Assembly: GCA_963846575.1 (NCBI GenBank)
Contig: CAWJWJ010000002.1
Location: 2,656,001-2,720,000, forward strand
Source: an uncultured Nitrospiraceae bacterium
Lineage (GTDB): Bacteria > Nitrospirota > Nitrospiria > Nitrospirales > Nitrospiraceae
Direction of reading: 5' to 3'
DNA length: 64,000 bases
Shown here in pieces: positions 1 through 29,759 of the stretch. The notes below the pieces were generated by a model. The model did no database searches. It was not told the origin of the DNA and was given only the letters and a program-made list of their open reading frames with translations. Numbering within the stretch: the stretch's first letter is position 1; every line of letters begins with the position of its first letter. The position numbers and the translations under genes are program-made.

Positions 1-3000
1 CCCGTCACCGCCTGCCAAAGCATTGTTACCGTGATTGCCGGTCAGCACATTGGCCAGAATATTGCCCGTCCCGTTGATCGCCGCAGATCCGGTCAGGGTA
101 AGATTTTCGAGATTGGCCCCCAGGACCCAGGTCGCAGAACTTTCCACCGTATCGGTGCCGGCATTCAACCCTTCGACCACGGTGTCCCCCGCGCCAACGA
201 CATAGCTGTCGTTTCCTGTCCCACCGGTCAACGTGTTGGCCGCGCTGTTGCCAGTCAGAATGTTGTTGAGCCCGTTTCCCGTGCCATTGATGGCGGCAGT
301 CCCAGTGAGCGTCAGATTCTCGATATTCGCCGCAAGTGTGTGCGTCACAGAACTCTTGACAGTATCTCTACCGGCATTCAGCCCTTCGACAACGGTGTCG
401 CCGGCCCCGACGACATAGGTGTCATTCCCTCCTCCTCCAGTGAGTCTATTTGCCGCGCCATTCCCAGTCAGAATATTATCCAGTCCGTTCCCGGTTCCAT
501 TGATCGCCCCGATCCCGGTCAGCGTGAGATTCTCCACATTGGCGGCAAGGGTGTACGTCACCAAACTCTGAACCGTGTCGATGCCTTCATGAGGCAATTC
601 GGTTATCTTGTCGCTGGCGTTGTCCACGATATACATGTCGTCGCCATGACCTCCGATCAGGGTATCCCCGCCGGCGCCACCATTGAGAATGTTTGCGGCA
701 CTGTTCCCGGTCAGAGTGTTCGCTACACCATTGCCGCTTCCGTCGATGGCGGACGTTCCCGTCAAGACCAACTTTTCCAAATTGGTCCCCAGTGTCCAAC
801 TAATATCGGTTTGGACGATATCGGTGCCGGCACTCGCGGCCTCTACAACCGTATCACCGGCTCCGACCACATAGGTGTCGTTCCCTGTCCCGCCTGCGAG
901 AACATTGGCCGCCGTGTTGCCGACAATAATATTGTTAAGTGAATTCCCGGTTCCGTTGATTGCTGCACTGCCTGCAAGCGTCAGGTTTTCGACATTCGCT
1001 CCCAACGCATACGAGATGCTGCTTTGAACGGTATCCACCCCTAGCCCAGCTTCCTCAGTCACTCCATCCCCGACATCATCGACTACATAGAGATCATTTC
1101 CGGAACCACCGATCATGGTATCAGCACCGATACCCCCGTCCAGCGTATCGCTTCCAGCGCCGCCATCCAATTGGTCACTTCCGGCACCGCCGAGCAATTT
1201 ATCATCACCGGCTCTACCACGGAGGCTATCGTTTCCTCCCATTCCTGACAGAATATCATTCGTAACATTCCCGGAAAGATAATCTGCCTCATCGGTGCCA
1301 ATCAGGTCCACGCCTTCAAGTCGCGCTAACATCTCGCTATAGTCCCAGATCGTGCCATCTGCAAATTGGATTTGATCGACGCGGGCCGCCTCGCCCAGGA
1401 AAAATCCAGCGAGGCCCAGTTGATCATCTGTCCCGTTCAGCAAAAGGACAATATCGCTGCCATTGTCGGGCATCGCACGCAGTGTAACATCACCTGGGAT
1501 GATTCCTTCTGTGAGTCGGATCGTATCCACATCTGCAAAATTCCCTTGTTCGTCGATAAAGTCGTCCCCATATCCCCGGCCGAAGATATAGGTATCGTGT
1601 CCCGACGAACCCTCAAGAAAATCGGAACCCGCCCCACCATCCAAAATATCATTTCCCATGTTCGCACGGATCTGATCGTCTCCTCCCATCCCCCAAATGG
1701 CATCATCCCCCAATAAACCATAGAGCGAATCATCTGCTTCGCCACCGACAAAGGTTTTTACACGTCCATTAATATCATCTGGGTTCCATATCGTCCCGTC
1801 AGTGAAAATAAGCTGGTCGACGGTGGCGTTGGCAGAGGCAAAGTAGGATTCAACGCTTAACTGATCATTGGTCCCATTAATTTTGATGACGAGATGGTTG
1901 ACATGGTTTTCCATTGTGATGTCGGCTGGCACGACGCCCATGAGAAATTGCACCCGGTCCAGGCCTGTTTGCATATAGGTCTGCTTGCCCATGCGTACGA
2001 TGTCTTGCCCATACCCACGGCCAAACACAAATGTATTATCTCCCACCCCGACGAGGATGTCGTTTCCTTCTCGTCCATCAAGCTGGTTCGGGCCAGACAG
2101 TTGGTTGTCCAATGCATTACCTACTACATCCACCGTTTGGGTCGGGTCCAAATAAAAATCGTCGAGAATCTGCACATTCTCCACATGATCCGGAGTCATC
2201 AACGTGAGTGAAGAAATCGGCGCAAGTTGGATGGTATCGATTCCCGCATTGGCATCCTCTGACACAGTCGGAAGACCGGAAAGGAAACGATAGATATCAT
2301 CGCCCATCCCACCGAATAACTGATCGCCGCCCCCGTGCGATTCCAACAGATCGTTTCCCGCCCCACCGTGCAGCACATTCACGCCAGTCCCACCGTACAG
2401 ACGATCATGTCCTTCTCCACCGTGTACGACATCGTCGCCCTCATCCCCTTCCAACACATCAGCGCCCTCGCCGCCGAGCAAGATGTCGTTTCCTTCACGT
2501 CCATGGAACCAATCATCGACTTGGCTACCTTGCATATGATCGGCAACGGTGGTACCAAACAACGTTCCTCCCGTCACCGACGCGGACAAGTGAAAGCCGC
2601 GAGAGAGCAATTGGCTGCTCGTCAGCACGGTCCCGTCTGCGAACTCAAACCGGCCAATGGTGTGAAACTCCGCCGGGGAATTGAGCCCGAAACCGATAAT
2701 CTGAACCGCGTCGCCACCGTGTCCTACTCGCACCACCAGCGAATCACCAGCTACCACATCCAAACTCAGGGATTCGGCCATGACACCGGAGCCGAAGACC
2801 AGACGGTTGCTCTGAATCGCATCATCCTCGATCGAATCAACCCCGTCCCCCAGACTAAACCGGTAGGTGTCGAGGCCCCCTCCACCGATCAGGCGATCAT
2901 TCCCGGCCCCACCGTGTAAATCGTCTTCTCCTGCCGCCGAATACGGACCATCCCACGATTCTCCGAACAACACATCGTCGCCACTCCCTCCCTCTAACTG

Positions 3001-6000
3001 ATCGTTGCCACCTCCCCCCTGCAAGACGTCATCGCCCTCACCGCCGCCGAGGGTGTCGTTTCCCGCCTGGCTCGCAAGTGGTGAGTCACCGAAAAGGGAA
3101 TCATTGCCGGCCTCTCCGAAGAGCACATCGTCGCCAACATCGCCCACCAACTGGTCAGAGCCGTCGCCCCCAAACAGTCGGTCCTGTCCCCCACCGCCCC
3201 ACAACTGGTCGTCGCCCTCTTCGCCATTCAGCGTGTCATTCCCACCGATCAGGCTCAGGACAGTTGGATCGTTGCCATCGCCATAAAGGAAATCATCGCC
3301 GGCCCCTCCGATAACAAGGTCATCACCATCGCCCCCCTGCACTTCATCGATCCCGTCGCCACCAAAGAGTGTATCGTTCCCCTCGCCCCCTCTCACGAGA
3401 TCATCATCTTCTTCACCGTCGAGCAGGTCAGCGCCCTCCTGACCTAACAAGAAATCGTCGCCTCTCCCTCCAAACAACTCGTCGTCTCCCAAACCACCCT
3501 GCAATTCATCGTCCCCCTCGTCACCCGACAAGATGTCTCCCCCGTCTTGACCGAAGAGCCGATCATTTTCGCTGCCGCCTGCCAAGGAATCGTTTCCGCC
3601 ACCACCTTGAAGCTCATCGATCCCGGCTCCCCCATGAAGCATATCGTTAGAGCCGGGCTCATTCGCGTACTCTCCAACCAGCAAGTCGTCCCCAATTCCT
3701 CCAAATAACACATCGGCTCCCACCCCACCGTACAACTGATCGTTTCCCTCACCGCCCTCAAGCCAGTCATCACCCGCTCGCACGGCATACAGCGCCCCTT
3801 CGCCAAAAATCACATCGTCCCCACTGCCCCCGATCAGGACATCCGCGAGTCCTCCGCCATAAAGCCAGTCATTCCCCGCGCCACCATCCAGATAGTCCTC
3901 ACCATCTTTGGCTGGATCCCACGGCAGAAGGGTTGCTCCACCGTTATGATCGCCGAACAAAACATCGATCCCATCACCACCCAACAGGAGGTCTGCGCCT
4001 CCAAATCCGATCAGGTTGTCGTCACCTGCTCCGCCGTCCATCGTGTCCTCCCCTAAGCCCAGAGAATAATCTAGGGTAAAGGAGAACCCAGTATTGAACG
4101 GGTGATCAGGCGGAATGATGGTCAACTCGGTCGTACCTCCATCCCCCCTCAGGTCATCGTTTCCACTGCCGCCGAGCAAGACGTCATTCCCCGCCCCGCC
4201 CACCAGGAGATCGTCGCCGGCCCCTCCATCTAAATAATCCTGCCCGGCTTGTTCGAGCGACAGATCCCCATAGAGTCGGTCATCGCCGTCACCGCCCTCC
4301 AGCACGTCGTTATCTTCCCAGCCATACAACTCGTCATTTCCCCCAAAACCCTGAAGCAGGTCGTTGCCTGCACGGCTGGACAGACGATCGAAATTGGGTC
4401 CGCCGTATAGCTGATCGTTCCCTGGTCCCGCATAAATCCGATAACTCCCTTGTCCCCCTTGGAAGATATAGTTCTTCGCCTCGATACGCTCGATGATCCA
4501 AGCTCCCGTCTGAGGAAGCAGAATCTCCTCAGCCGCAAATCCATTGGCGCCAAAATTTATCGGAGGAACCGCGCCGGCGACGAACGAGTCCATGTTGGCT
4601 ACCGTCACGTGGGCCTCCACCTGCGTGCTATGCGTGGACTGACCTTCGGCATCTGCCAGCGTAACAGAGAGCGTGAGTGATGCATCAGCCGCGATGTCTT
4701 GCGTCGACTTGAGCCCGACGACCAACTGCCTCCGGCCCTCCGGAACGACCAGCGCAAAGGCACTGCCTTGCGGCAGGAGGTCCGTACCATCAGTGCGGAG
4801 CACGACCCCGCCTGCGTTGGGGCCGCTCAGCGTCAGCATCAGTTTCTGGCCACCGATCGCCGCTTCGAAGGGCAGATTGATGGTGATCGCTTTCAGTTGG
4901 CCTTCCCTGAGACTCACGGCTGCCGGTACTACGGCATCAGGATTAAACCCCGCTGCGTTAAACGGATTCGCTCCGAAGCCTTGCTGCACAACTACGGTCT
5001 GCCCGGCCTGTTGAAGCGTAATTCTCGCAGCTTCCAGTGCTGCGCCTAGGACTGGATCCACGGTCCATTCGCGCGACGCCTGCTCATACCCCTTCCGAAA
5101 GGCATCAAGCTCGATAAATCCCAAAGAACGGCCCAGATCGAACACCCCAGGAATGTCGCCGATGAACTCTGAAAAGACATTCGCGATTCCCTGAGCCGTG
5201 TTAGTAATCCACGGAACCAGCGTGCCTTCGACAAATGCATCGACGGCTCCGACTGCACCCCTCAAATTTCTGCCTACCTCAATCAGTGCTGAACTGACCA
5301 GTCCTTGTACCTGAGCCACGTTTTGACCGAGGGCGTCGGCTGCACCAGTAATCATCTCTAACGCTCGATTGATCCCTCCGCCCGGCAATGCCAACGTGTC
5401 GGCGAAGACATCACGATCAAACTGAAGCCCTACCAATTGCGCCGCTGCTTCGGCTTGTTTGCCCAACTCCCCCACCCCAAGCGCCACGCCCAGAGCTGAA
5501 GCATAGAGTGCCAGACGGAGAGCCGCTTCCGTGTTTCCCTGTACTGTGCCGTCGGTATTTCCAAGTTGCGAGTAATGGCGGGCAAATGACTGCGAGAGCG
5601 CCAGGTCTAATTGAAGCGGAATGTAGGGTACCACCGGGGCTGCCCAGTATTCCGGCTTCCTAATCGTATGGGCAAACAGCCCCTCGCCTGTAGTAGCGAA
5701 GGTTACTTGATGTCCGACCACCTGTGTCCCTGCGCCACCCACATGCGGCCCGCCCAGCAAATGAACTGCATCACCCTGCACAATCGGAGGTTGTCCGATC
5801 ACCACATGATGTTCACCGATAACCACTGACATCCGGTCAGTCCCCGGAGAGGCTCCACCCAGGACGTGTGTAATCCCCGGGGCATTGAAGGTAGTGAAGT
5901 GGAGCTGAGTGGGATTGATTATGAAATTGGGATTGGAGTTACCTTGAGCATTATTGGGGTCTAGGCAGCCCTCGAGCAATTTCCAGAACAGAAGTGAAAT

Positions 6001-6417
6001 CGCTGACCTGACTCTTCGTCTTTCAAATTTGTGTCATTAATAGCCCATTGAACTAACGCACCGCCTAGACTGTGGCCAACTAGCTCCACCTTTCGGTTTG
6101 CGACCAATTCTTGGGCAAGCCATGGATTCACATCATTACGGAGTTCATTAAATTGGGTTTTGCCAATATCGGTGACATCCGCGAACAGATCTTCCATATT
6201 CACAGACGTGACTTCCGATCCACGAAACACCAGCATTCGCCGACCGTCGTCTTACGGCTCGCTTGAGCGCGTAGACAAAGCCACCGCTCCACCGGACCTT
6301 GGCCACTCTCTTCCGTTCCAAATGACGGATCAATTGCCAGCCTATGGAAAAGGAATTCTCGTAATATACTAGTTCTGCAGCTTCGCGAGCATCAGCTAGG
6401 CTAACAACGGCGGTCAT
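1..6417 (-). CDS. Large RTX (hemolysin-type Ca2+-binding repeat) T1SS substrate with N-terminal lipase (Lipase_3-like) domain; 3' end outside window, frameshifts near 5960-6300
   Basis: Spot-translation across 6033 to 1 stays in one frame, with many GGxGxDxLx nonapeptides, VENLTL repeats and QFADGTIWD motifs. Lipase motifs LVFRGSE, VGHSLGG (ORF 5961-6236) and FTTFNAPG (about 5880). ATG at 6417 follows AAGGAG. Absent from the ORF track because there is no stop in the window. Confidence 0.9.
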
Positions 6418-7666
6418 GGCGTTGCTCCTTGCATTCGATGAACATGAGTTCAGACTGTCCTTTATTACGCTCACCCACTTGCGACCGTCGGCGACATCTG
6501 ATTGCCGCAATTTCGTCTGGAAAATTGACTTTCATGAAGTGGTTCAACACTCGGCCTCTTGGATTTTTGAGCGTCCATCCAGAGGCTCGTCACGAGACGA
6601 TGACCGCGCTCAATCATCACTACGTCACCTTGGGCATTCACATGCAGATCGTGCAAATAAATGGATCATCGGGAGTTTGTCTGAATACTTACCACTTCTT
6701 CCATCTTTAGCCTTTTCCCCATCTAGATGAAATCGGCAGATCCTCCCCCCAACAGTGAGATGGCGATCGCATGGTCACCTGCTCTAAAACACCCCCGTAG
6801 AGGTGATTTCCCAGTTAGATCGGGCTTAAAACTGAGCCTCCAGCTGATATGGGCCTTGTTCCTGCGTGGTCTGCTGTACTATGCGACCATTTAAATCTGT
6901 AGCAGATAACCTTGCTTAGTTCCGTGCCATCGGCCATTTTCAAAGGTGGTTCCGAATTGGTCACCCATTCGTAATTTCCACTACCTTTGCTGACTCGAAT
7001 CGTCTCATCCCAGCGATACTGGACAAGGAATCCTTTGTCCAGTAACCACATACGTTTGGTACCTCTATCGTGGGGCAAACACACCGCGCGATACCCTGGC
7101 AGGAGATATGCGAATCCACAATCGTTCTTGGCCTGATCTGGTAGCGCTGAACTCTGCAAGCCCCGTCCACCCAAAGTATTACTAAAACTCAGGACAAATT
7201 GGTTTGCGATGCTGACAGCTTGTGGTACGACGAAACCCTCTAGTTTCTCTGCCAACAGGGTTGGTGGCTGGCCGATTGTTAGAGAGTAGAGCTTGTTCCG
7301 TTTCTTATCCGCGGATAACACATGGAACAACAGGGTGTGCGACTGACAAGTCACATCGCGAATGTGAGGCTGTAAGTTCGGTTCAATGGGCGCCAGATCA
7401 ATTCTCCTGAGATCTTTAGGTTTAGCCGGATCAAGGTAATAGAGCCCCTCCACCTCGAACTCCTGCCCAGGGGCTGGCTGGCCTCCTTTTACGATCACGA
7501 AATGCGTGTCGTCATACCAGCAGCCCCCACCTCTGATCCCTGTATTGATGACCTGGTATTCACGTTCGCCTTTGGCCAGAACAGTACTTACACAAGCGGC
7601 TGCAATGAGGACCACGGACAGGCACAGACGCTTCCGATTCCTGTGAGGCAATCGAGCCCTGTTCAT
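6414..7666 (-). CDS. Exported protein with signal peptide, probably beta-rich; C-terminal third broken by several indels
   Basis: ORF 6815-7666 has a basic N-terminus and hydrophobic segment ending VLA. Coding-like sequence continues in shifting frames (TDLNGRIVQQ, GGRICRFHLDG, LHDLHVNAQGDVVMIERG, DGRKWVSV) to a TGA overlapping the RTX ATG. Confidence 0.7.
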
Positions 7667-7892
7667 TGACGGTGGACTCCTTTGTTTGGACGTGGTGCGT
7701 TGTAAAAGAGTTAGGAGCGACCATTTTGGCGATCTACTGGCACATCAGCGAACCTCAGTTACAGCCGGCTTGCACATCCCACTCTGTGCTGTGACATAGA
7801 GTGTCAAGAGCTCTTGTTCCATGCTGTTTGGGATGACCAGGTTGAAGACACAAGGGCCCCAAATTTCACCGGGATCATGTCTTGTGGCTGCC

Positions 7893-9320
7893 CTACCGCT
7901 CCCGCAAGCTTTCCTGCATCGACTTCAGTAACGGACTCAGCAGATACTCGATCACTCGTCGCTGGCCGGTTTTGACCTCCACTGTCACCGCCATCCCAGG
8001 CGTGAGGTGGACGGTCTTCCCTTCCACATGGAGTGTCGGGTGGTCAAGGCTGATTCGACTGGCATAGATTAAACCGCCTTGCTCTTTCTCCAACGGTACC
8101 GCATCATCCGAGACGGTCAAAACTTTTCCCGGAACGGTGCCGTAGAGAGTAAACGGAAAGGTTTCAATTTTGATTTCCACCGGCTGCCCTTCCCTTACAA
8201 ACCCGATGTCTTTGTTTTCAAAGCGTGCTTCAACTTCGACGGAGTGGTCCTGCGGCACGACGATGAGCAAGGGTTGCGCGGGGGTCACCACCCCACCGAC
8301 CGTATGCACCGCCAGCTGCTGGACGACCCCTTCGATCGGCGATACCAATTTCTGTAAGTCAGTACGCTGTTCTGCCTTTCGCACCTCCTGAAGCAGCGAT
8401 GCAGCTTTCGTTTCGGTAGTGGACAGCTCGGCCTGTTTGGTCTGCTGAAACTCCGAGACGAGCGCATAGTAATTTTGCTCCGCCTCGGCCAACGCTGCCT
8501 GATCTTGCCTTAGTTTGCTTTTCTGCCCGGCCCACTCCTGCGCTTTGTCGATGCGCTGCTGCTCAAACTGGAGATAGTCCATCTTCGACACATATTGCTG
8601 CGCGAGCAACGTGCGATAGGCCTTGGCTCGCTCAGCCTCTATCGGGACAGTAGCTTCGAGACGTCGAAGATTATCTTTGGTGGCCTCCACTGCGGCTTTG
8701 CGCTGACCAATGAGATGACGTGCGGCATCCACTCGCGCAGAAAATTCCGTCATCTGATCACGCAACAGTTGTTGTTGCAGCATTACGAACTGTGGGGCGG
8801 CATCAGCGGGTGGAGGGAAGTTGAAGCGCCCGTCAATCAAGGCTCGCAAGCGAGCGGCTTCGACCAGGGTCGCGCGATACTCGTTAGTGGCCCGGTCGCG
8901 GTCTGCACTGTTTTGGGTTTCATCCAGTTCAATCAGGATCTCGCCTTGATGAACCGTCTGGCCATCTTGCACGTGAATGGCAGTGATAACTCCGTTCTCG
9001 AACGGCTGAATTGTTTTGGAATGGCCGCTGGGAATAATCCTCCCGGGAGCCACCGCCACAATATCGATGACACTGAGGGACGACCAGATGCACGCCGTCG
9101 TGAACACCATCAGGATGGTCCATAGAATCGCTCGGCCGATTGGCGAAGGCGGCGCATGTTCAATTTCAAGCACTGCCGGCAGGAATTCAGTTGTATCGCC
9201 GTAGGAGGTTGCTCCTATCGGGAGCGTCTCCGCAGCTTGCCATGCAGCACGCCACGCTGCCAAATGTCGCAACAAACTGTATCGCATCCTCATCGTTCTC
9301 TCAGTTGTTTGCCGGGTCAC
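7893..9320 (-). CDS. hlyD: HlyD-family T1SS membrane fusion protein (start may be 9293)
   Basis: EFLPAVLEIE, one TM helix, coiled coil, SPIEGVVQQL, C-terminal LTPGMAVTVEVKTGQRRVIEYLLSPL. Confidence 0.96.
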   Translation of the reverse strand: MTRQTTERTMRMRYSLLRHLAAWRAAWQAAETLPIGATSYGDTTEFLPAVLEIEHAPPSPIGRAILWTILMVFTTACIWSSLSVIDIVAVAPGRIIPSGHSKTIQPFENGVITAIHVQDGQTVHQGEILIELDETQNSADRDRATNEYRATLVEAARLRALIDGRFNFPPPADAAPQFVMLQQQLLRDQMTEFSARVDAARHLIGQRKAAVEATKDNLRRLEATVPIEAERAKAYRTLLAQQYVSKMDYLQFEQQRIDKAQEWAGQKSKLRQDQAALAEAEQNYYALVSEFQQTKQAELSTTETKAASLLQEVRKAEQRTDLQKLVSPIEGVVQQLAVHTVGGVVTPAQPLLIVVPQDHSVEVEARFENKDIGFVREGQPVEIKIETFPFTLYGTVPGKVLTVSDDAVPLEKEQGGLIYASRISLDHPTLHVEGKTVHLTPGMAVTVEVKTGQRRVIEYLLSPLLKSMQESLRER

Positions 9321-9384
9321 CCCGCTGCATCGGCAGATTAAGGTCCGCTTATTCCTCCGCTACACAGCCATTGCATCACTCAAC

Positions 9385-11553
9385 CTATGCCGCGGCCGAC
9401 TGTCCACCCTGATATCTATGGAGCCGGGCGTATAGCCCATTCCGCTTGAGGAGGTCGTCGTGGGTGCCATCTTCAAGGAGCTGCCCCTTCTCGAGCACAA
9501 AGATTCGATGAGATGCGCGAACCGTACTGAGTCGATGGGCAATGATGACGACCGTGCGCCCCTTGCAGATCTGCGCCATGTTTTGCTGGATGATCGCTTC
9601 AGACTCATAGTCCAATGCACTTGTGGCTTCATCGAAGATGAGGATGCGTGGATTGGCCACCAGCGCCCTGGCGATGGCGATCCGTTGTCGCTGGCCGCCG
9701 GATAGGGTACAGCCGTGCTCGCCAACAACCGTATCGTACCCTTGAGGAAGTTCAAGGATGAACTCGTGGGCACCCGCCAATTTCGCGGCGTTCATGACTC
9801 GATCCATGGAAAGACCTGGATCCGTCAGCGCGATGTTGTCACGCACTGATCGGTTGAATAGAAAGTTTTCCTGTAGGACCACCCCGACCTGACGCCGCAG
9901 CCAGGCCGGATCGACCTGAGCAAGATCAACTCCATCTACCAACACACGGCCTCGTTCCGGTACATACAGGCGTTGCATTAACTTCGCGATAGTACTCTTC
10001 CCGGAGCCTGACCGTCCCACCATCCCTATAACCTGACCGGGTTGTAATGTGAGCGAAACCTGCTGGAGGACCACTGGTCCGTCAGGACGATAGCGAAAAG
10101 TGACATCGTCAAACACAATCTGCCCGGAAATCTTTGGCAAAGTCGTGCGGTTCGGGTTGTAGGACGGCTCCGGCCTGGTGTTCAGCAGATCCCCCAATCG
10201 TTGCATCGAAAGACCCACCTGCTGAAATTCCTGCCAAAGGTTTACCATTCGCAACAAAGGACCGGTGACTTGGGCTGACAGCATGTTGAATGCGATCAGC
10301 CCACCGATACTCAAAACTCCATCGATGACCTGATATGCTCCGACCCACATAAGGGCGATCGTCGTGGACTTCTGGATAAAGATTCCCACCTGTCCGGCCA
10401 CAGTGATGAGACTGGTGGCGCGGAAACTCGCTCGCACATATTCGGCCAGCTGTTCATCCCAGCGACGTTGTAATGGCGGCTCAACGGCCAGAGCCTTCAC
10501 GGTTTGAATGCCGCTCACGGCCTCCACAAGAAACGACTGGTTCTCCGCACCGCGGTTGAATTTTTCATTGAGCCGCAGACGAATGGTCGGTGTGATGACT
10601 ACTGACAGAATGGCATAGAGCGGAAGGGACGCCATCACCACCAATGTCAGCAGAGAACTGTAGATCCACATCACCCCCAAAAATATGACGGTGAACGCAA
10701 CATCCAGCACAACCGTCACAGAGTTGCTGGTAATAAACTGGCGAATCTGTTCGAGTTCGCGCACTCGCGCGACCGTATCGCCGACGCGTCGGGCCTCGAA
10801 ATAGGCGATCGGAAGCGCCAAAAGATGCCGGAATAGCTGTGCACCAAGCCCCACGTCGATCCGGTTGGTGGTGTGAGCAAACAGGTACGTGCGCAACCCT
10901 CCGAGTAGGGCATCGAACAGGGCTAGTGCGACCATCCCGATACCTAACACGTGCAACGTTGTAAAGCCCTTGTGTACCAATACCTTGTCTATGACAACTT
11001 GCGTAAAGAGCGGTGTGAGCAGTGCGAACAGCTGAAGGAAGAACGAAGCCAGCAATACTTCACCTAGGAGCCTTCGATACTTAACCACGGCTGGTATGAA
11101 CCACGTGATATCGAAAACAAGATCTTGTGCCCTCAGGCCGGCACGTTTCGTAGCAAGCAACAGTCTACCGCTCCACGTCGCCATGAATTCTTCCTTGGAT
11201 TGAACTTGTGGTCGCGGTTCCAGTGGATCCTGGATTAACACATTGTTGGCCTCTACCTTCGCCAACACAATGTACTGCCCGTTGACCCTCTGAGCGATGG
11301 TTGGAAACGGTGTCGCCTTCAGGTCCTTCCATGTGGCAGTCACCAGGCCAGCCTTCAACCCCACATGTTTCGCCGCACGTAACAGTTCCTGTGGTGTCAG
11401 TATCTGACCGGACTGCCCGTATTGATGTGCAATCTGTCCGGCATCCACATACAGGTCATGAAATCGCGCGAGCACCAGCAGGCACAACAATCCTGTATCC
11501 GGAAAGGGTTGGGGCCTGGAACAAGGGTCTGGACGGCACACAGCGGCTTCCAT
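9385..11553 (-). CDS. hlyB: HlyB-family T1SS ABC transporter with C39-like N-terminal domain
   Basis: DTGLLCL N-terminus, TM domain, Walker A GRSGSGKS, LSGGQRQR, IFDEATSALD. ATG 11553 gives 722 aa and avoids overlap with the upstream gene. Confidence 0.96.
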   Translation of the reverse strand: MEAAVCRPDPCSRPQPFPDTGLLCLLVLARFHDLYVDAGQIAHQYGQSGQILTPQELLRAAKHVGLKAGLVTATWKDLKATPFPTIAQRVNGQYIVLAKVEANNVLIQDPLEPRPQVQSKEEFMATWSGRLLLATKRAGLRAQDLVFDITWFIPAVVKYRRLLGEVLLASFFLQLFALLTPLFTQVVIDKVLVHKGFTTLHVLGIGMVALALFDALLGGLRTYLFAHTTNRIDVGLGAQLFRHLLALPIAYFEARRVGDTVARVRELEQIRQFITSNSVTVVLDVAFTVIFLGVMWIYSSLLTLVVMASLPLYAILSVVITPTIRLRLNEKFNRGAENQSFLVEAVSGIQTVKALAVEPPLQRRWDEQLAEYVRASFRATSLITVAGQVGIFIQKSTTIALMWVGAYQVIDGVLSIGGLIAFNMLSAQVTGPLLRMVNLWQEFQQVGLSMQRLGDLLNTRPEPSYNPNRTTLPKISGQIVFDDVTFRYRPDGPVVLQQVSLTLQPGQVIGMVGRSGSGKSTIAKLMQRLYVPERGRVLVDGVDLAQVDPAWLRRQVGVVLQENFLFNRSVRDNIALTDPGLSMDRVMNAAKLAGAHEFILELPQGYDTVVGEHGCTLSGGQRQRIAIARALVANPRILIFDEATSALDYESEAIIQQNMAQICKGRTVVIIAHRLSTVRASHRIFVLEKGQLLEDGTHDDLLKRNGLYARLHRYQGGQSAAA

Positions 11554-11575
11554 GGATGAACTGTAAATAGAGCGG

Positions 11576-11953
11576 CTAAGATTGTTTCGGCTTAGGAGGT
11601 TGGAGAGAGCCCAGCATCTGCTGGAGTTGCTGATTGAGCCGAATTGCGGAAGGAAGAGGCAAGGAGACACCTGCTGCTTTGGTGCCATTTAGCTGCTGGG
11701 GTATTGCTTCGCCTTGTTTAACACGTCGAGCGACAAGGCCCAACAAAGCAGGTTCAAGAACCCCAAACTCGACGTATGCAAGTCCTTTGTCTATACCGAC
11801 ATGAGTGTAGTTGACCAGCTGCGGACGCTCATGCTCCCCGCCTGGCTTCAGCCAAACATTAACCGCGGTTGCCTTATCGCTATTCCACTGGGAAAGATTA
11901 CCTACCACCATGCTATCCCTCCTGCGATCTAGCTTTTGACATTCCTCCGTCAT
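11576..11953 (-). CDS. Hypothetical cytoplasmic protein (DUF3467-like) heading the T1SS operon
   Basis: 125-aa ORF ending 22 nt before hlyB; NYTHV-x6-YVEFG followed by a helix resembles DUF3467-type proteins. Confidence 0.6.
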   Translation of the reverse strand: MTEECQKLDRRRDSMVVGNLSQWNSDKATAVNVWLKPGGEHERPQLVNYTHVGIDKGLAYVEFGVLEPALLGLVARRVKQGEAIPQQLNGTKAAGVSLPLPSAIRLNQQLQQMLGSLQPPKPKQS

Positions 11954-12595: not shown

Positions 12596-13654
12596 TTACG
12601 TGTGGTTAGTGGGCGGAGGAATACCGGATTCAGGTTTGACGGGTCCCCAGAAGAGGCGGTGAATCCAGACTTGATAACTAATCACGATGGTGATGCCGAT
12701 CGTAAACCACCAGAACGCGGCCTCGAGCCCATGGGTTCCGGCTGAGGCGTTGCCGGCCGTCAGACTGTACGCCGAATCGGTCGTGGAGATGAGGAGATTG
12801 GGGTACGATCCCCAGGCCACAGAGGCCAGCAGGCCGAGCAAAAATAGACTCGAGGCAGCAAAGGCGGCGACATCCCGATCACGTCGTCTGAAGAGGACCA
12901 GGGCGGCCAAGGCCGTTAACGCCGTCAGCGGGAGGGCATACCCGATGGGATGCGCGTCGTAATTGATCCGGTAGGAGGGTTGTATGTAATGGATGGACAG
13001 AAGGACCAGCGGGACGGACGCCGCCGCGGCATACCCGCTCCGCGCGGCCAACGATCGCGCCCGCGCCTGCAGGGCACCCGTGGTTTTCATGGCCAGATAG
13101 TTGGCCCCGTGCGCCGTCAGCATCGCGACGCTCGCGACCGCCAGCAGCACCGTGAACCAGTCGAGAATGCCCGGTTTGGGCCCAGGGGTGAAATCAGTCC
13201 ACAGGGCGACGAAAAAGTATCCGTCCTCGTCCAAGGGCACCCCACGAATCAGGTTGCCCAGCGCCGCACCGAAAACGATCGCCAGCAACGCGCTGGACGC
13301 TGCGAAGGACACATCCCAGAAGTCTCTCCAGAGGGGATGGTCCAGATGGGACCGCAGCTCGAAGGCCAGGCCGCGGCCGATCAGCAGCCAGAGCACAAGG
13401 GTGAGCGCCAGATAAAAGCCGCTGAATCCCGACGCGTAGGCCCTGGGAAAGGCCAGAAAGAGCACGGCGCCGCCGGCGATCAGCCAGACCTCGTTGCCGC
13501 TCCAGACCGGGCCGATCGCCGCCAACGCCATGCGCCGTTCCGCCTCGGTCCGCGCGATGAAGGAGTAGACCATGCCGACGCCGAAATCGTACCCGTCGAG
13601 CACGACATACAGGGCCAGCATCAGGGTGACGGCGCTATACCAGAAGAGTTCCAT
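12596..13654 (-). CDS. cydB: Cytochrome bd ubiquinol oxidase subunit II
   Basis: YVVLDGYDFGVG, GPVWSGNEVWLI, multiple TM helices; adjacent to cydA. Confidence 0.97.
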   Translation of the reverse strand: MELFWYSAVTLMLALYVVLDGYDFGVGMVYSFIARTEAERRMALAAIGPVWSGNEVWLIAGGAVLFLAFPRAYASGFSGFYLALTLVLWLLIGRGLAFELRSHLDHPLWRDFWDVSFAASSALLAIVFGAALGNLIRGVPLDEDGYFFVALWTDFTPGPKPGILDWFTVLLAVASVAMLTAHGANYLAMKTTGALQARARSLAARSGYAAAASVPLVLLSIHYIQPSYRINYDAHPIGYALPLTALTALAALVLFRRRDRDVAAFAASSLFLLGLLASVAWGSYPNLLISTTDSAYSLTAGNASAGTHGLEAAFWWFTIGITIVISYQVWIHRLFWGPVKPESGIPPPTNHT

Positions 13655-13670
13655 CCCGTTCGATCCTTCA

Positions 13671-15032
13671 CTAAGCCGGTTGAGCGGCGCCCTCGCCAGG
13701 CGCGGGACGAGCTTCCGCCGCCGGGCCGTGCCGTAGCGTTTCAGCGAACAGGAAGAGAAAAAGCAGGCCCAAGAACAGATAGAGCCCGAGAAAGCCGATG
13801 AGGGTAAAGAGCGCGTTCCCCGAATGAACCAGGGGCGAGATCCCGTCGGCCGTGTGAAGCAGCCCGTACACCAGCCAGGGCTGACGGCCCAACTCGGCGG
13901 TCATCCAGCCGGCCGTGGTGGCAATATAGGGAAACGGTACGCTGAGCATGATCAGCCACAGCAGCCATTTGGCCTTGAAGAGCCGTCCCCGCCACAAATA
14001 CATCAGCGCGAGCCCCATGACTGCCAGGAGTATCGTCCCGAGGCCGGCCATAATGTGGTACGCGTAATAGAGCAGCGGAATATTGTCCGGCCACTCCCGC
14101 TGAGCGAACACGTTCAGCCCCTTCACGTGGGCATAGAGGTCGTAATACACGAGTAGGCTCAGCGCCGACGGCAGGACGAGCGGGTTGTCGATCGTCATGG
14201 TCTCCATGTTCGGCTGCCCGATCAACAGGATATCGGCTCCCCGCTCGGTGCGGAACAGCCCCTCGAAGGCCGCGCCCTTGATCGGCTGGAACTCGAACAC
14301 CTGCCGCGCGCTCTCATGGCCGGTGGGCGTGATCATCAAGACCGAGGCGATGGCTCCCACCACGACGCCGGTCCGAAGAAAGGTCCTGGCATGGGCGAGG
14401 TGTTGCCCCGACAGGAGATAAAACGCCCCCACCGCCGCCATCACGACCGAGGCGGTCACCACCGCGGCGGTCATGTTGTGGGCAAATTGCCAGAACAGCC
14501 ATGGATTGGTCAGCAGTCCCGTGAGACTCTCGATCAGCAGGCGTCCATCCTCGGCCACGCGATAGGCCACCGGATGCTGCATCCAGGCATTCGTCGCCAG
14601 AATGAAGTAGCCGGACAACCACGAGCCCAGGAAGAGCATGAAGGCCGCCACCCATTGAAGGCGCCGGCTGAACCGCTTCTCACCGAACAGCAGAATGCCG
14701 AGGAAGGAGGATTCGAGAAAAAATGCGAACACGCCCTCCATGGCGAGGGTTTGCCCGAGGATTCCGCCGGCATAGTTGGAGAACTTCGCCCAGTTGGTGC
14801 CGAATTGAAATTCCAACGGGATGCCGGTCACCACTCCGAAGGCGAAGCTCAACGCGAAAATGCCCGTCCAGAATCTCGCGACCCGGTGATAATGGTCATC
14901 CACGCTCCAGAGATCCCTGGTCCTGAAATAGACCAGCAGCAGGGCCAGGCCCATCGTCAGTTGCGGAAACAGGTAGTGGAAGCTGGCTGTGACGGCAAAC
15001 TGCAACCGGTCGTAAAGTATTGCGCTCTCCAT
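13671..15032 (-). CDS. cydA: Cytochrome bd ubiquinol oxidase subunit I
   Basis: RLQFA..FHYLF, GVVTGIPLEFQFGTNW, NAWMQHP, QPIKGAAFEG, ELGRQPW. Confidence 0.97.
   Translation of the reverse strand: MESAILYDRLQFAVTASFHYLFPQLTMGLALLLVYFRTRDLWSVDDHYHRVARFWTGIFALSFAFGVVTGIPLEFQFGTNWAKFSNYAGGILGQTLAMEGVFAFFLESSFLGILLFGEKRFSRRLQWVAAFMLFLGSWLSGYFILATNAWMQHPVAYRVAEDGRLLIESLTGLLTNPWLFWQFAHNMTAAVVTASVVMAAVGAFYLLSGQHLAHARTFLRTGVVVGAIASVLMITPTGHESARQVFEFQPIKGAAFEGLFRTERGADILLIGQPNMETMTIDNPLVLPSALSLLVYYDLYAHVKGLNVFAQREWPDNIPLLYYAYHIMAGLGTILLAVMGLALMYLWRGRLFKAKWLLWLIMLSVPFPYIATTAGWMTAELGRQPWLVYGLLHTADGISPLVHSGNALFTLIGFLGLYLFLGLLFLFLFAETLRHGPAAEARPAPGEGAAQPA

Positions 15033-27258: not shown

Positions 27259-29759
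<2,501 letters not shown>

Follow-up and report, generated by a model that had tools for sequence, protein, structure and literature searches.

The first 11,953 positions of a 64,000-nucleotide stretch of DNA from an uncultured Nitrospiraceae bacterium (the window; GenBank assembly GCA_963846575.1, contig CAWJWJ010000002.1, positions 2,656,001 to 2,720,000) hold a type I secretion locus that we read, at roughly two chances in three, as encoding a polymorphic antibacterial toxin: an RTX protein with an enzyme at its N-terminus, exported by type I secretion, and an immunity gene directly upstream. The gene order is as first described, the partner gene overlaps the RTX gene at a stop/start junction, the two are strictly linked, they are swapped jointly among relatives, and arrays of stacked cassettes hold whole partners in front of truncated enzymes. 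What is new here is the polymorphism of the slot, in which partner-enzyme pairs are exchanged as a unit. The comparison of sequences gives good support to a system that would work like a polymorphic toxin in mirror image, its function being predicted.

Layout of the locus

On the minus strand the genes follow one another in the order small open reading frame (ORF), hlyB, hlyD, signal-peptide partner gene (from 7666) and RTX gene (from 6417), which bears out the order proposed in a preliminary description made from the sequence of the window. The features are as follows.

11576..11953, minus strand: small conserved ORF, about 110 residues in relatives, which heads these loci
9385..11553, minus strand: hlyB, type I secretion ABC transporter with a C39-like domain (TIGR01846, Pfam, homologue starts)
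7893..9320, minus strand: hlyD, membrane fusion protein (TIGR01843)
6414..7666, minus strand: class-A partner, candidate immunity protein (nine intact homologues, model, hydropathy); frameshifted from about 6918 in this assembly
6414..6417, minus strand: ATGA overlap of stop and start codons, preceded by an AGGAG-like site (window and intact pairs)
5640..6417, minus strand: class-A N-terminal alpha/beta-hydrolase (lipase class 3-like) domain; frameshifted from about 6335 to about 5960
6077-6060, 5778-5755 and 5676-5662, minus strand: putative catalytic triad, Ser in GHSLGG, Asp in QGDAVHLL and His in FAHTI, respectively
4590..5640, minus strand: linker region, predicted helical and then beta-rich (identity profile; helices predicted at low confidence)
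1..4590 and 426 nucleotides past the left edge of the window, minus strand: RTX repeat stalk (PF00353 repeats, open frame)
5960..6920, no strand: stretch rich in small indels, most likely unpolished assembly (frameshift-aware alignment)

Both transporter genes pass their NCBIfam cut-offs (hlyB, 1020 bits against 726 for TIGR01846; hlyD, 398 bits against 209 for TIGR01843); the hlyB ORF reaches 11688, and its homologues start at the ATG at 11553. The RTX gene, put at more than 2,100 residues in the preliminary description, spans 6,843 nucleotides, or about 2,280 codons. Its body is a single open frame of 2,152 residues running from 6033 to 426 nucleotides left of the window's edge, with 43 GGxGxD matches and 28 PF00353 stretches in the Pfam scan; genome-wide, all 24 PF00353 matches fall in this gene, and no other PF00353 protein was found. 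The C-terminus is conserved across cassette classes and is likely to be the secretion signal. With repeats preceding this putative signal and no N-terminal signal peptide detected, the protein fits the pattern of an HlyBD substrate.

This operon holds no gene for a TolC-like channel; the operons of some relatives do. The best match in the genome to the relatives' operon-linked TolC stands at 43-45% and is split in two frames (G000:C1:301696-303020); two further matches are weaker. PF06035 (the BTLCP/LapG protease, a mark of LapA-type retained adhesins) was not found in this genome (G000, 99.9% complete), and a promoter and terminator scan of the locus gave nothing above chance.

Linkage of partner and enzyme

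The class-A partner occurs in 13 of the 371 genomes of the family and the class-A lipase in 10, all of them within those 13. In two of the three genomes with a partner and no lipase the partner gene reaches the end of its contig, and the third holds a broken orphan together with an 80-residue enzyme stub. The lipase always lies behind the partner (10/10 genomes), which bears on one of the checks that the preliminary description had proposed, whether homologous loci keep the pair together; genome G283 has a second lipase copy, behind a partial partner. The ATGA overlap described earlier is present at 6417-6414 and is kept in all nine intact pairs of the relatives. It recurs in nine of ten metagenome loci, the tenth ending inside the partner, in a set that is not wholly independent: three of its loci are 98-100% identical to proteins already in the comparison, and two look like near copies. 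Translation of the RTX gene is probably coupled to that of the partner at this junction. Neither the class-A lipase nor the class-A1 partner had a match in searches of plasmids.

Exchange of cassettes among relatives

With the small ORF as marker, 60 further loci were taken, chosen for long contigs. In 20 loci of the genus the slot after hlyD (or tolC) is occupied by class B (9), class C (8), a class-B stub followed by class C (1), a degraded class C (1) or an unclassified gene (1). Class B combines a partner of about 320 residues with a GYSLG lipase, and class C a membrane-anchored partner of about 185 residues with a different GHSLG lipase. On a tree of hlyB (22 rows, L083 left out) the cassette labels require 10 changes where shuffled labels take 10.9, and 68 of 200 shuffles come out as low; because the labels are scattered over the tree, the movement of cassettes is not tied to that of the transporter.

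Over 70 loci a script proposed 107 candidate pairs, of which 71 were kept. The class of the partner predicts the class of the enzyme in 69 of these 71 (shuffle mean 27, maximum 35), a figure that describes the set and is not a P-value, since kin are not independent. Partner and enzyme are thus exchanged jointly in relatives, which answers the earlier query whether such loci swap their N-terminal domains. About ten partner classes alternate, among them propellers, WD40 and TPR proteins and families without a known match. An N-terminal hydrophobic segment is present in 64 of the 71 partners (by a hydropathy rule rather than SignalP), and several classes have lipoprotein-like or membrane-anchored N-termini. 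The enzyme is N-terminal in every pair. Homology between classes begins at the RTX repeats, earlier for one class; the linker region is common to just one other cassette class.

Most of the enzymes are GxSxG hydrolases and two are T4-lysozyme-like. The lysozyme-like domain, which occupies the same slot, matches a PHROG endolysin at E 5e-4 and a Pfam family at E 3e-4 and aligns with T4 lysozyme at E 0.1; one of the two enzymes keeps Glu, Asp and Thr in register with T4 lysozyme. An alternative of this kind points to a bacterial target, because peptidoglycan is a bacterial substrate, and so bears on the proposal that the toxin is directed at eukaryotes, with the lipase hitting grazing protists or fungi and the partner shielding the membranes of the producer. 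Many RTX proteins do act on eukaryotic membranes, at least in the portion of the review that deals with them (PMC3034196), and exposed eukaryotic phospholipids would remove the outer-membrane problem to which we return below. The lysozyme-like occupant and the arrays of orphan partners nonetheless point to attack by bacteria carrying the same system, and none of the listed loci was seen to have an acyltransferase gene next to the RTX gene, although no profile search was made for one; a eukaryotic target is very unlikely.

The architecture crosses phyla: on a Ralstonia megaplasmid a class-B pair (partner identity 26-29%; enzyme 34%, E 4e-24) adjoins hlyBD and an RTX frame of more than 2,300 residues. 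For three partner classes PDB sequences gave no match beyond two chance-level rows. The profile comparison of class-A0 with class-A2 partners gives 96% over 69 C-terminal columns, which is a lead; homology between class-A and class-A3 partners was not accepted, at a profile probability of 17.8.

In the same slot, at L005:7754-9322, L036:1759-3189, L059:2-7375, L048:1606-2718 and L057:7272-15827, partner-like genes are followed by other N-terminal domains or long proteins that belong to no known family.

Arrays of stacked cassettes

In many loci several cassettes are piled up ahead of the long RTX gene, and transposases or additional copies of the small ORF often accompany them. Among 44 array partners in 20 hand-picked loci, 29 are whole and precede a truncated or absent enzyme, 12 are whole and precede a long or open one, three are partial and likewise precede a truncated or absent one, and no partial partner goes with a long enzyme; 'whole' is here a partly circular term, many of the references coming from the same array loci. 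The window's own locus holds one cassette, and the arrays are seen in its relatives. The same pattern, in the opposite orientation, is described for tpsC and mafB cassettes (PMC5472700, in its part on these arrays).

These orphans bear on two further readings of the partner. In the first it is an anchor or folding partner resembling FrpD of Neisseria meningitidis, which would hold the N-terminal domain on the surface of the producer for adhesion or remodelling of the biofilm, with phage or grazers driving diversity. In the relevant section of PMC5472700 FrpD, whose gene lies upstream of that for FrpC, attaches to the variable N-terminus of FrpC and is interpreted as the anchor of an adhesin; a specific binder would co-vary with the enzyme just as an immunity protein does, the lipoprotein-like or membrane-anchored N-termini of several partner classes would suit an anchor, and distant relatives of the lipase sit in adhesin-like proteins. 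An anchor is useless without its enzyme, and yet those 29 whole partners stand before truncated or absent ones. The class-A partners, moreover, have no conserved lipobox, the self-processing motif of FrpC was not found, and the FrpC/FrpD pair has itself been re-read as a possible toxin and immunity protein in a passage of Bayer-Santos et al. (PMC6759196). We consider the anchor unlikely.

The second reading makes the partner a safety catch like Inh/AprI, which would guard the periplasm of the producer from leakage of a nutritional or matrix-remodelling hydrolase and have no role in competition. According to the review passages on these enzymes, RTX protease operons include the gene for Inh, an inhibitor that is exported by Sec to the periplasm and presumed to guard against leakage, and the RTX lipases of family I.3, which leave the cell by type I secretion, are exoenzymes of the ordinary kind (PMC3034196). 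A safety catch predicts neither the repeated exchange of unrelated partner families nor the keeping of partners after their enzymes have been truncated; furthermore, the same passages give family I.3 lipases about 480-620 residues and no need of an extra gene product (PMC3034196). At about 2,280 residues, and with a fixed partner, the present protein departs from the family I.3 pattern, and a PueAB model reaches 78 bits on it against a cut-off of 670, through the repeats only. A safety catch is likewise unlikely.

One small transposase-like ORF family recurs between cassettes, often just after the enzyme stub; loci with transposase-like ORFs are L037, L058, L060, L061, L063, L065, L082, L126, L127 and L129.

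The class-A enzyme and its partner

The lipase motifs named in the preliminary description lie at 6227-6216 (FRGS), 6077-6060 (GHSLGG) and 5892-5875 (TFNAPG); the first two share a frame other than that of the third. In all nine class-A homologues S117, D208 and H242 are invariant. The domain matches Lipase_3 weakly, has fungal lipases and a feruloyl esterase as its best Foldseek matches (E 9e-5), with the type VI secretion lipase toxin/immunity complex 9cys also among the matches (E 2e-3), and has no sequence match to any PDB chain. It is best regarded as a putative lipase-fold hydrolase with a Ser-Asp-His triad. Two of the nine enzymes (L005 and L020) have a nucleophile elbow GHSSG instead of GHSLG. 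The NCBIfam name 'SA1320 family' was dropped, the match lying far below the cut-off and the name being absent from the paper on the lipase toxin TslA.

The class-A partner has about 415 residues in relatives, where nine homologues are intact, and its homologues are Nitrospira proteins. No Pfam or NCBIfam family covers it, and its own family comprises 107 clusters, none informatively named. Its N-terminus resembles a signal peptide, with no conserved lipobox by eye, so that export is predicted. The model of the L007 homologue is a beta-propeller (residues 46-416, pLDDT 80) with PD40-type look-alikes in the fold comparison (VIA Z 17.6, root-mean-square deviation 4.2, 273 residues aligned); FrpD is absent among the 50 fold matches listed. 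The partners are mosaics, with two types of C-terminal blade (57-66% identity within types, 33-40% between) that assort independently of the N-terminal blades, and they diverge faster than the enzymes (49% against 65%). Identities of partners and enzymes are correlated (rho 0.88), which is not taken as evidence of co-evolution because kin share both genes. Prediction of a complex between intact class-A lipase (residues 1-270) and partner (46-416) gave a median of 0.12 against a mark of 0.32.

Frameshifts in the copy of this genome

In a frameshift-aware alignment with six intact homologues the C-terminal half of the partner needs 9-14 shifts and the lipase 4-6, about 13-20 in roughly 1 kb, all between about 6920 and about 5960; the partner ORF as written ends at 283 residues (6815). 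The breaks are heavier than the preliminary description implied, and the comparative work is based on the intact pairs of relatives. These frameshifts are probably errors of the assembly. The aligned path meets no stop codon (identities 43-61% for the partner and 68-72% for the lipase), and other genes are split as well, namely the TolC-like gene, a secA-like gene frameshifted near residue 246 (identity 92-95%; this broken gene, near G000:C1 1197170, is presumably secA) and the gene on the minus strand at 27678-29750 of the window, which we take from its motifs to be a catalase-peroxidase and which is divided over three ORFs. Among 202 orthologue-like matches elsewhere in the genome, obtained with 400 kb of a relative, 9 extended over more than one frame, in some cases just because of long gaps; 17 internal stops from this comparison were set aside, since many of the query ORFs may be shadow frames. 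Of five DNA sequencing runs listed, each with a small share, contigs from four were compared with the window and left 6001-6800 uncovered; no RNA run was listed.

True decay of the cassette, in the second half of the partner and the first half of the lipase, would be the alternative. Relatives do hold degraded cassettes (L077, L024), and most genes of this genome are far less densely broken. Against decay, identity to homologues is as high in the broken stretch as in the unbroken parts, with no in-frame stops along the path, the 6-kb RTX body and hlyBD are open, and the secA, TolC-like and catalase-peroxidase genes are split too. A pseudogene is the less likely outcome, though far from a negligible one.

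Proposed mechanism and weight of the evidence

Export would begin with HlyBD and an unlinked TolC-like channel, which would pass the RTX protein C-terminus first, perhaps with the small ORF product as chaperone; calcium would then fold the RTX stalk, and the lipase would become active outside the cell. There it might reach phospholipids in the envelopes of neighbouring bacteria, which would probably be close kin from the same microcolonies, while the partner would bind its cognate lipase in the cell envelope and so shield the producer together with its clone-mates. A new partner-enzyme pair would be installed by recombination, on the upstream side in the small ORF or hlyD and on the downstream side in the RTX repeats, and the old partners, often left behind, would amount to a library of spare immunities. 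We infer export, activity, target, route of entry and neutralisation from this arrangement.

The preliminary description had already suggested a toxin/immunity pair. That part of its claim is strengthened by linkage, joint swapping and arrays; kinship with a Tle/Tli family, on which it drew, was not shown. Its argument that an exported partner would meet only incoming enzyme was too strong: in Inh a type I substrate has a periplasmic partner, and FrpD has been read as a surface anchor. Some type I substrates are described as pausing with the N-terminus in the periplasm (PMC7777525, in the part that treats such substrates), and the title of another paper claims protection against a cell's own effectors (PMC10933484).

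Several points weigh against an antibacterial toxin. Toxicity, enzymatic activity and neutralisation are predictions, and a protein of more than 230 kDa would have to cross the outer membrane of a target. The lipase model is unreliable past residue 171, so that the triad is assigned by conservation and not by geometry. No described immunity family was recognised in the partner classes tested (Pfam, NCBIfam and PDB sequences), which gave generic TPR and WD40 repeats only, and the lysozyme match lies under every curated threshold. Among distant relatives of the lipase (36 scanned of 150 listed) Ig/cadherin adhesin-like proteins are commoner than core proteins of extracellular contractile injection systems (4 of the 36). 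A FrpC-type self-processing motif, which we take to be DP[LI][AVI]LDLxGxG (Asp-Pro clip-and-link), was absent from 72 proteins searched, in a search that a diverged module would escape. Over its first 720 residues the L007 protein has no hydrophobic segment above threshold, and a pore-forming linker is accordingly not supported. Finally, 36 of the 107 candidate pairs were removed by hand (mostly shadow ORFs inside RTX genes or split pieces, with a few unclear singles), and the count of class agreement and the term 'whole' carry the limits given with them above.

Relation to known systems

Annotation usually makes large RTX proteins haemolysins or adhesins, and type I secretion seldom figures among the polymorphic weapons that bacteria use on one another. 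CdzCD is reportedly a type I-linked bacteriocin. The nearest likeness is to FrpD/FrpC and to the related X-T4SS pair Smlt3024/Smlt3025: as far as the published passages go, the likeness lies in an exported partner whose gene immediately precedes that of an RTX protein, itself secreted by type I and variable at its N-terminus. FrpC/FrpD was proposed in 2019 as an antibacterial effector/immunity pair of type I secretion, in a passage of Bayer-Santos et al. (PMC6759196). The Nitrospira system differs in its N-terminal domain, a recognisable hydrolase with no self-processing motif found beside it, in its partner, a predicted beta-propeller where the published description gives FrpD a central sheet, and in its ten or so partner classes and stacked orphan cassettes.

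With contact-dependent inhibition (CDI) systems and TpsA-tpsC, with MafB and with Rhs it shares a conserved delivery part, an exchangeable enzyme, an adjacent cognate partner and spare arrays, as these are set out in sections of PMC5472700 and PMC3482391. It is the mirror image of CDI, MafB and Rhs in that the enzyme is N-terminal, the partner lies upstream, the spares are upstream and 3'-truncated, and export is of type I. The C-terminal toxin domain by which polymorphic toxins are classically recognised is missing; exchange, co-variation and arrays are all present. The passages of Zhang et al. 2012 on RTX or lipase describe no such RTX/lipase system (PMC3482391).

Like the Tle/Tli pairs of type VI secretion, the class-A cassette sets a GxSxG lipase, its triad assigned by conservation, beside a partner gene; unlike them it is delivered by an RTX part and hlyBD, with no VgrG, PAAR or Hcp, and its partner falls in no described Tli family in the libraries searched. 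The reverse lipase toxin TslA of type VII secretion also has an N-terminal lipase, in the account given in parts of PMC10730906, and the Nitrospira protein differs in being without an LXG part. RTX bacteriocins are known, for example RzcA of Rhizobium (PMC3034196, in its passage on bacteriocins), and Min-Wnt domains are fused to RTX N-termini in one section of PMC12419801; the passages in question describe neither a cognate partner nor exchange of cassettes for these proteins, the likeness being one of description. AprA/Inh and the family I.3 lipases resemble the system as type I-secreted hydrolases with RTX repeats, and Inh, in the available description, is Sec-exported, periplasmic and encoded in the operon. 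The same description makes Inh a 10-kDa beta-barrel directed at a metalloprotease and the family I.3 lipases short and partnerless, and presents neither as polymorphic. In a body of literature short of most subscription papers, no published account was found of the Nitrospira system or of RTX cassette arrays with upstream partners, although such loci could figure in the supplementary tables of RTX homologues of PMC6759196 and PMC12419801.

The small ORF and neighbouring genes

The small ORF is present in 179 of the 371 family genomes and in 36 of the 39 genomes of the genus. It has no Pfam, PHROG or NCBIfam match; an Atlas match of 0.88, to a cluster in which 24% of the members carry PF11950, is a lead, and no more than that, to a DUF3467-like protein. 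Its product may be a cytoplasmic chaperone or regulator. In several arrays (L065, L066, L122, L123) the small ORF is repeated before single cassettes, and these copies look as if they marked one recombination end of the cassette.

Next to the small ORF on its upstream side, on the minus strand at 12596-15032 of the window, lie genes that we take to encode cytochrome bd-like subunits (cydA, cydB). A cydB-like gene also flanks the cassette locus in L007 and L008. In genome G165 four ORFs upstream of the class-A locus (L017 region, L027:170-5218) resemble a CRISPR-Cas set.

Significance

The general proposition that follows is one to which we give even odds: that type I secretion hosts a so far undescribed class of mirror-image polymorphic antibacterial toxins, with N-terminal lipases or lysozymes that attack the envelope on giant RTX stalks, upstream exported immunity, arrays and a dedicated small chaperone, and that these are common in Nitrospira, reach the Pseudomonadota and are a chief weapon in the competition between strains of nitrite oxidisers and comammox bacteria. 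The many natural enzyme-partner pairs with recognisable catalytic residues make the 2019 FrpC/FrpD hypothesis directly testable. If the reading holds, a delivery route would be added to the catalogue of polymorphic toxins and several new immunity folds supplied, and how an RTX-borne enzyme crosses the outer membrane of its target would become a new question. It would also suggest how related Nitrospira strains may exclude one another in treatment plants and soils.

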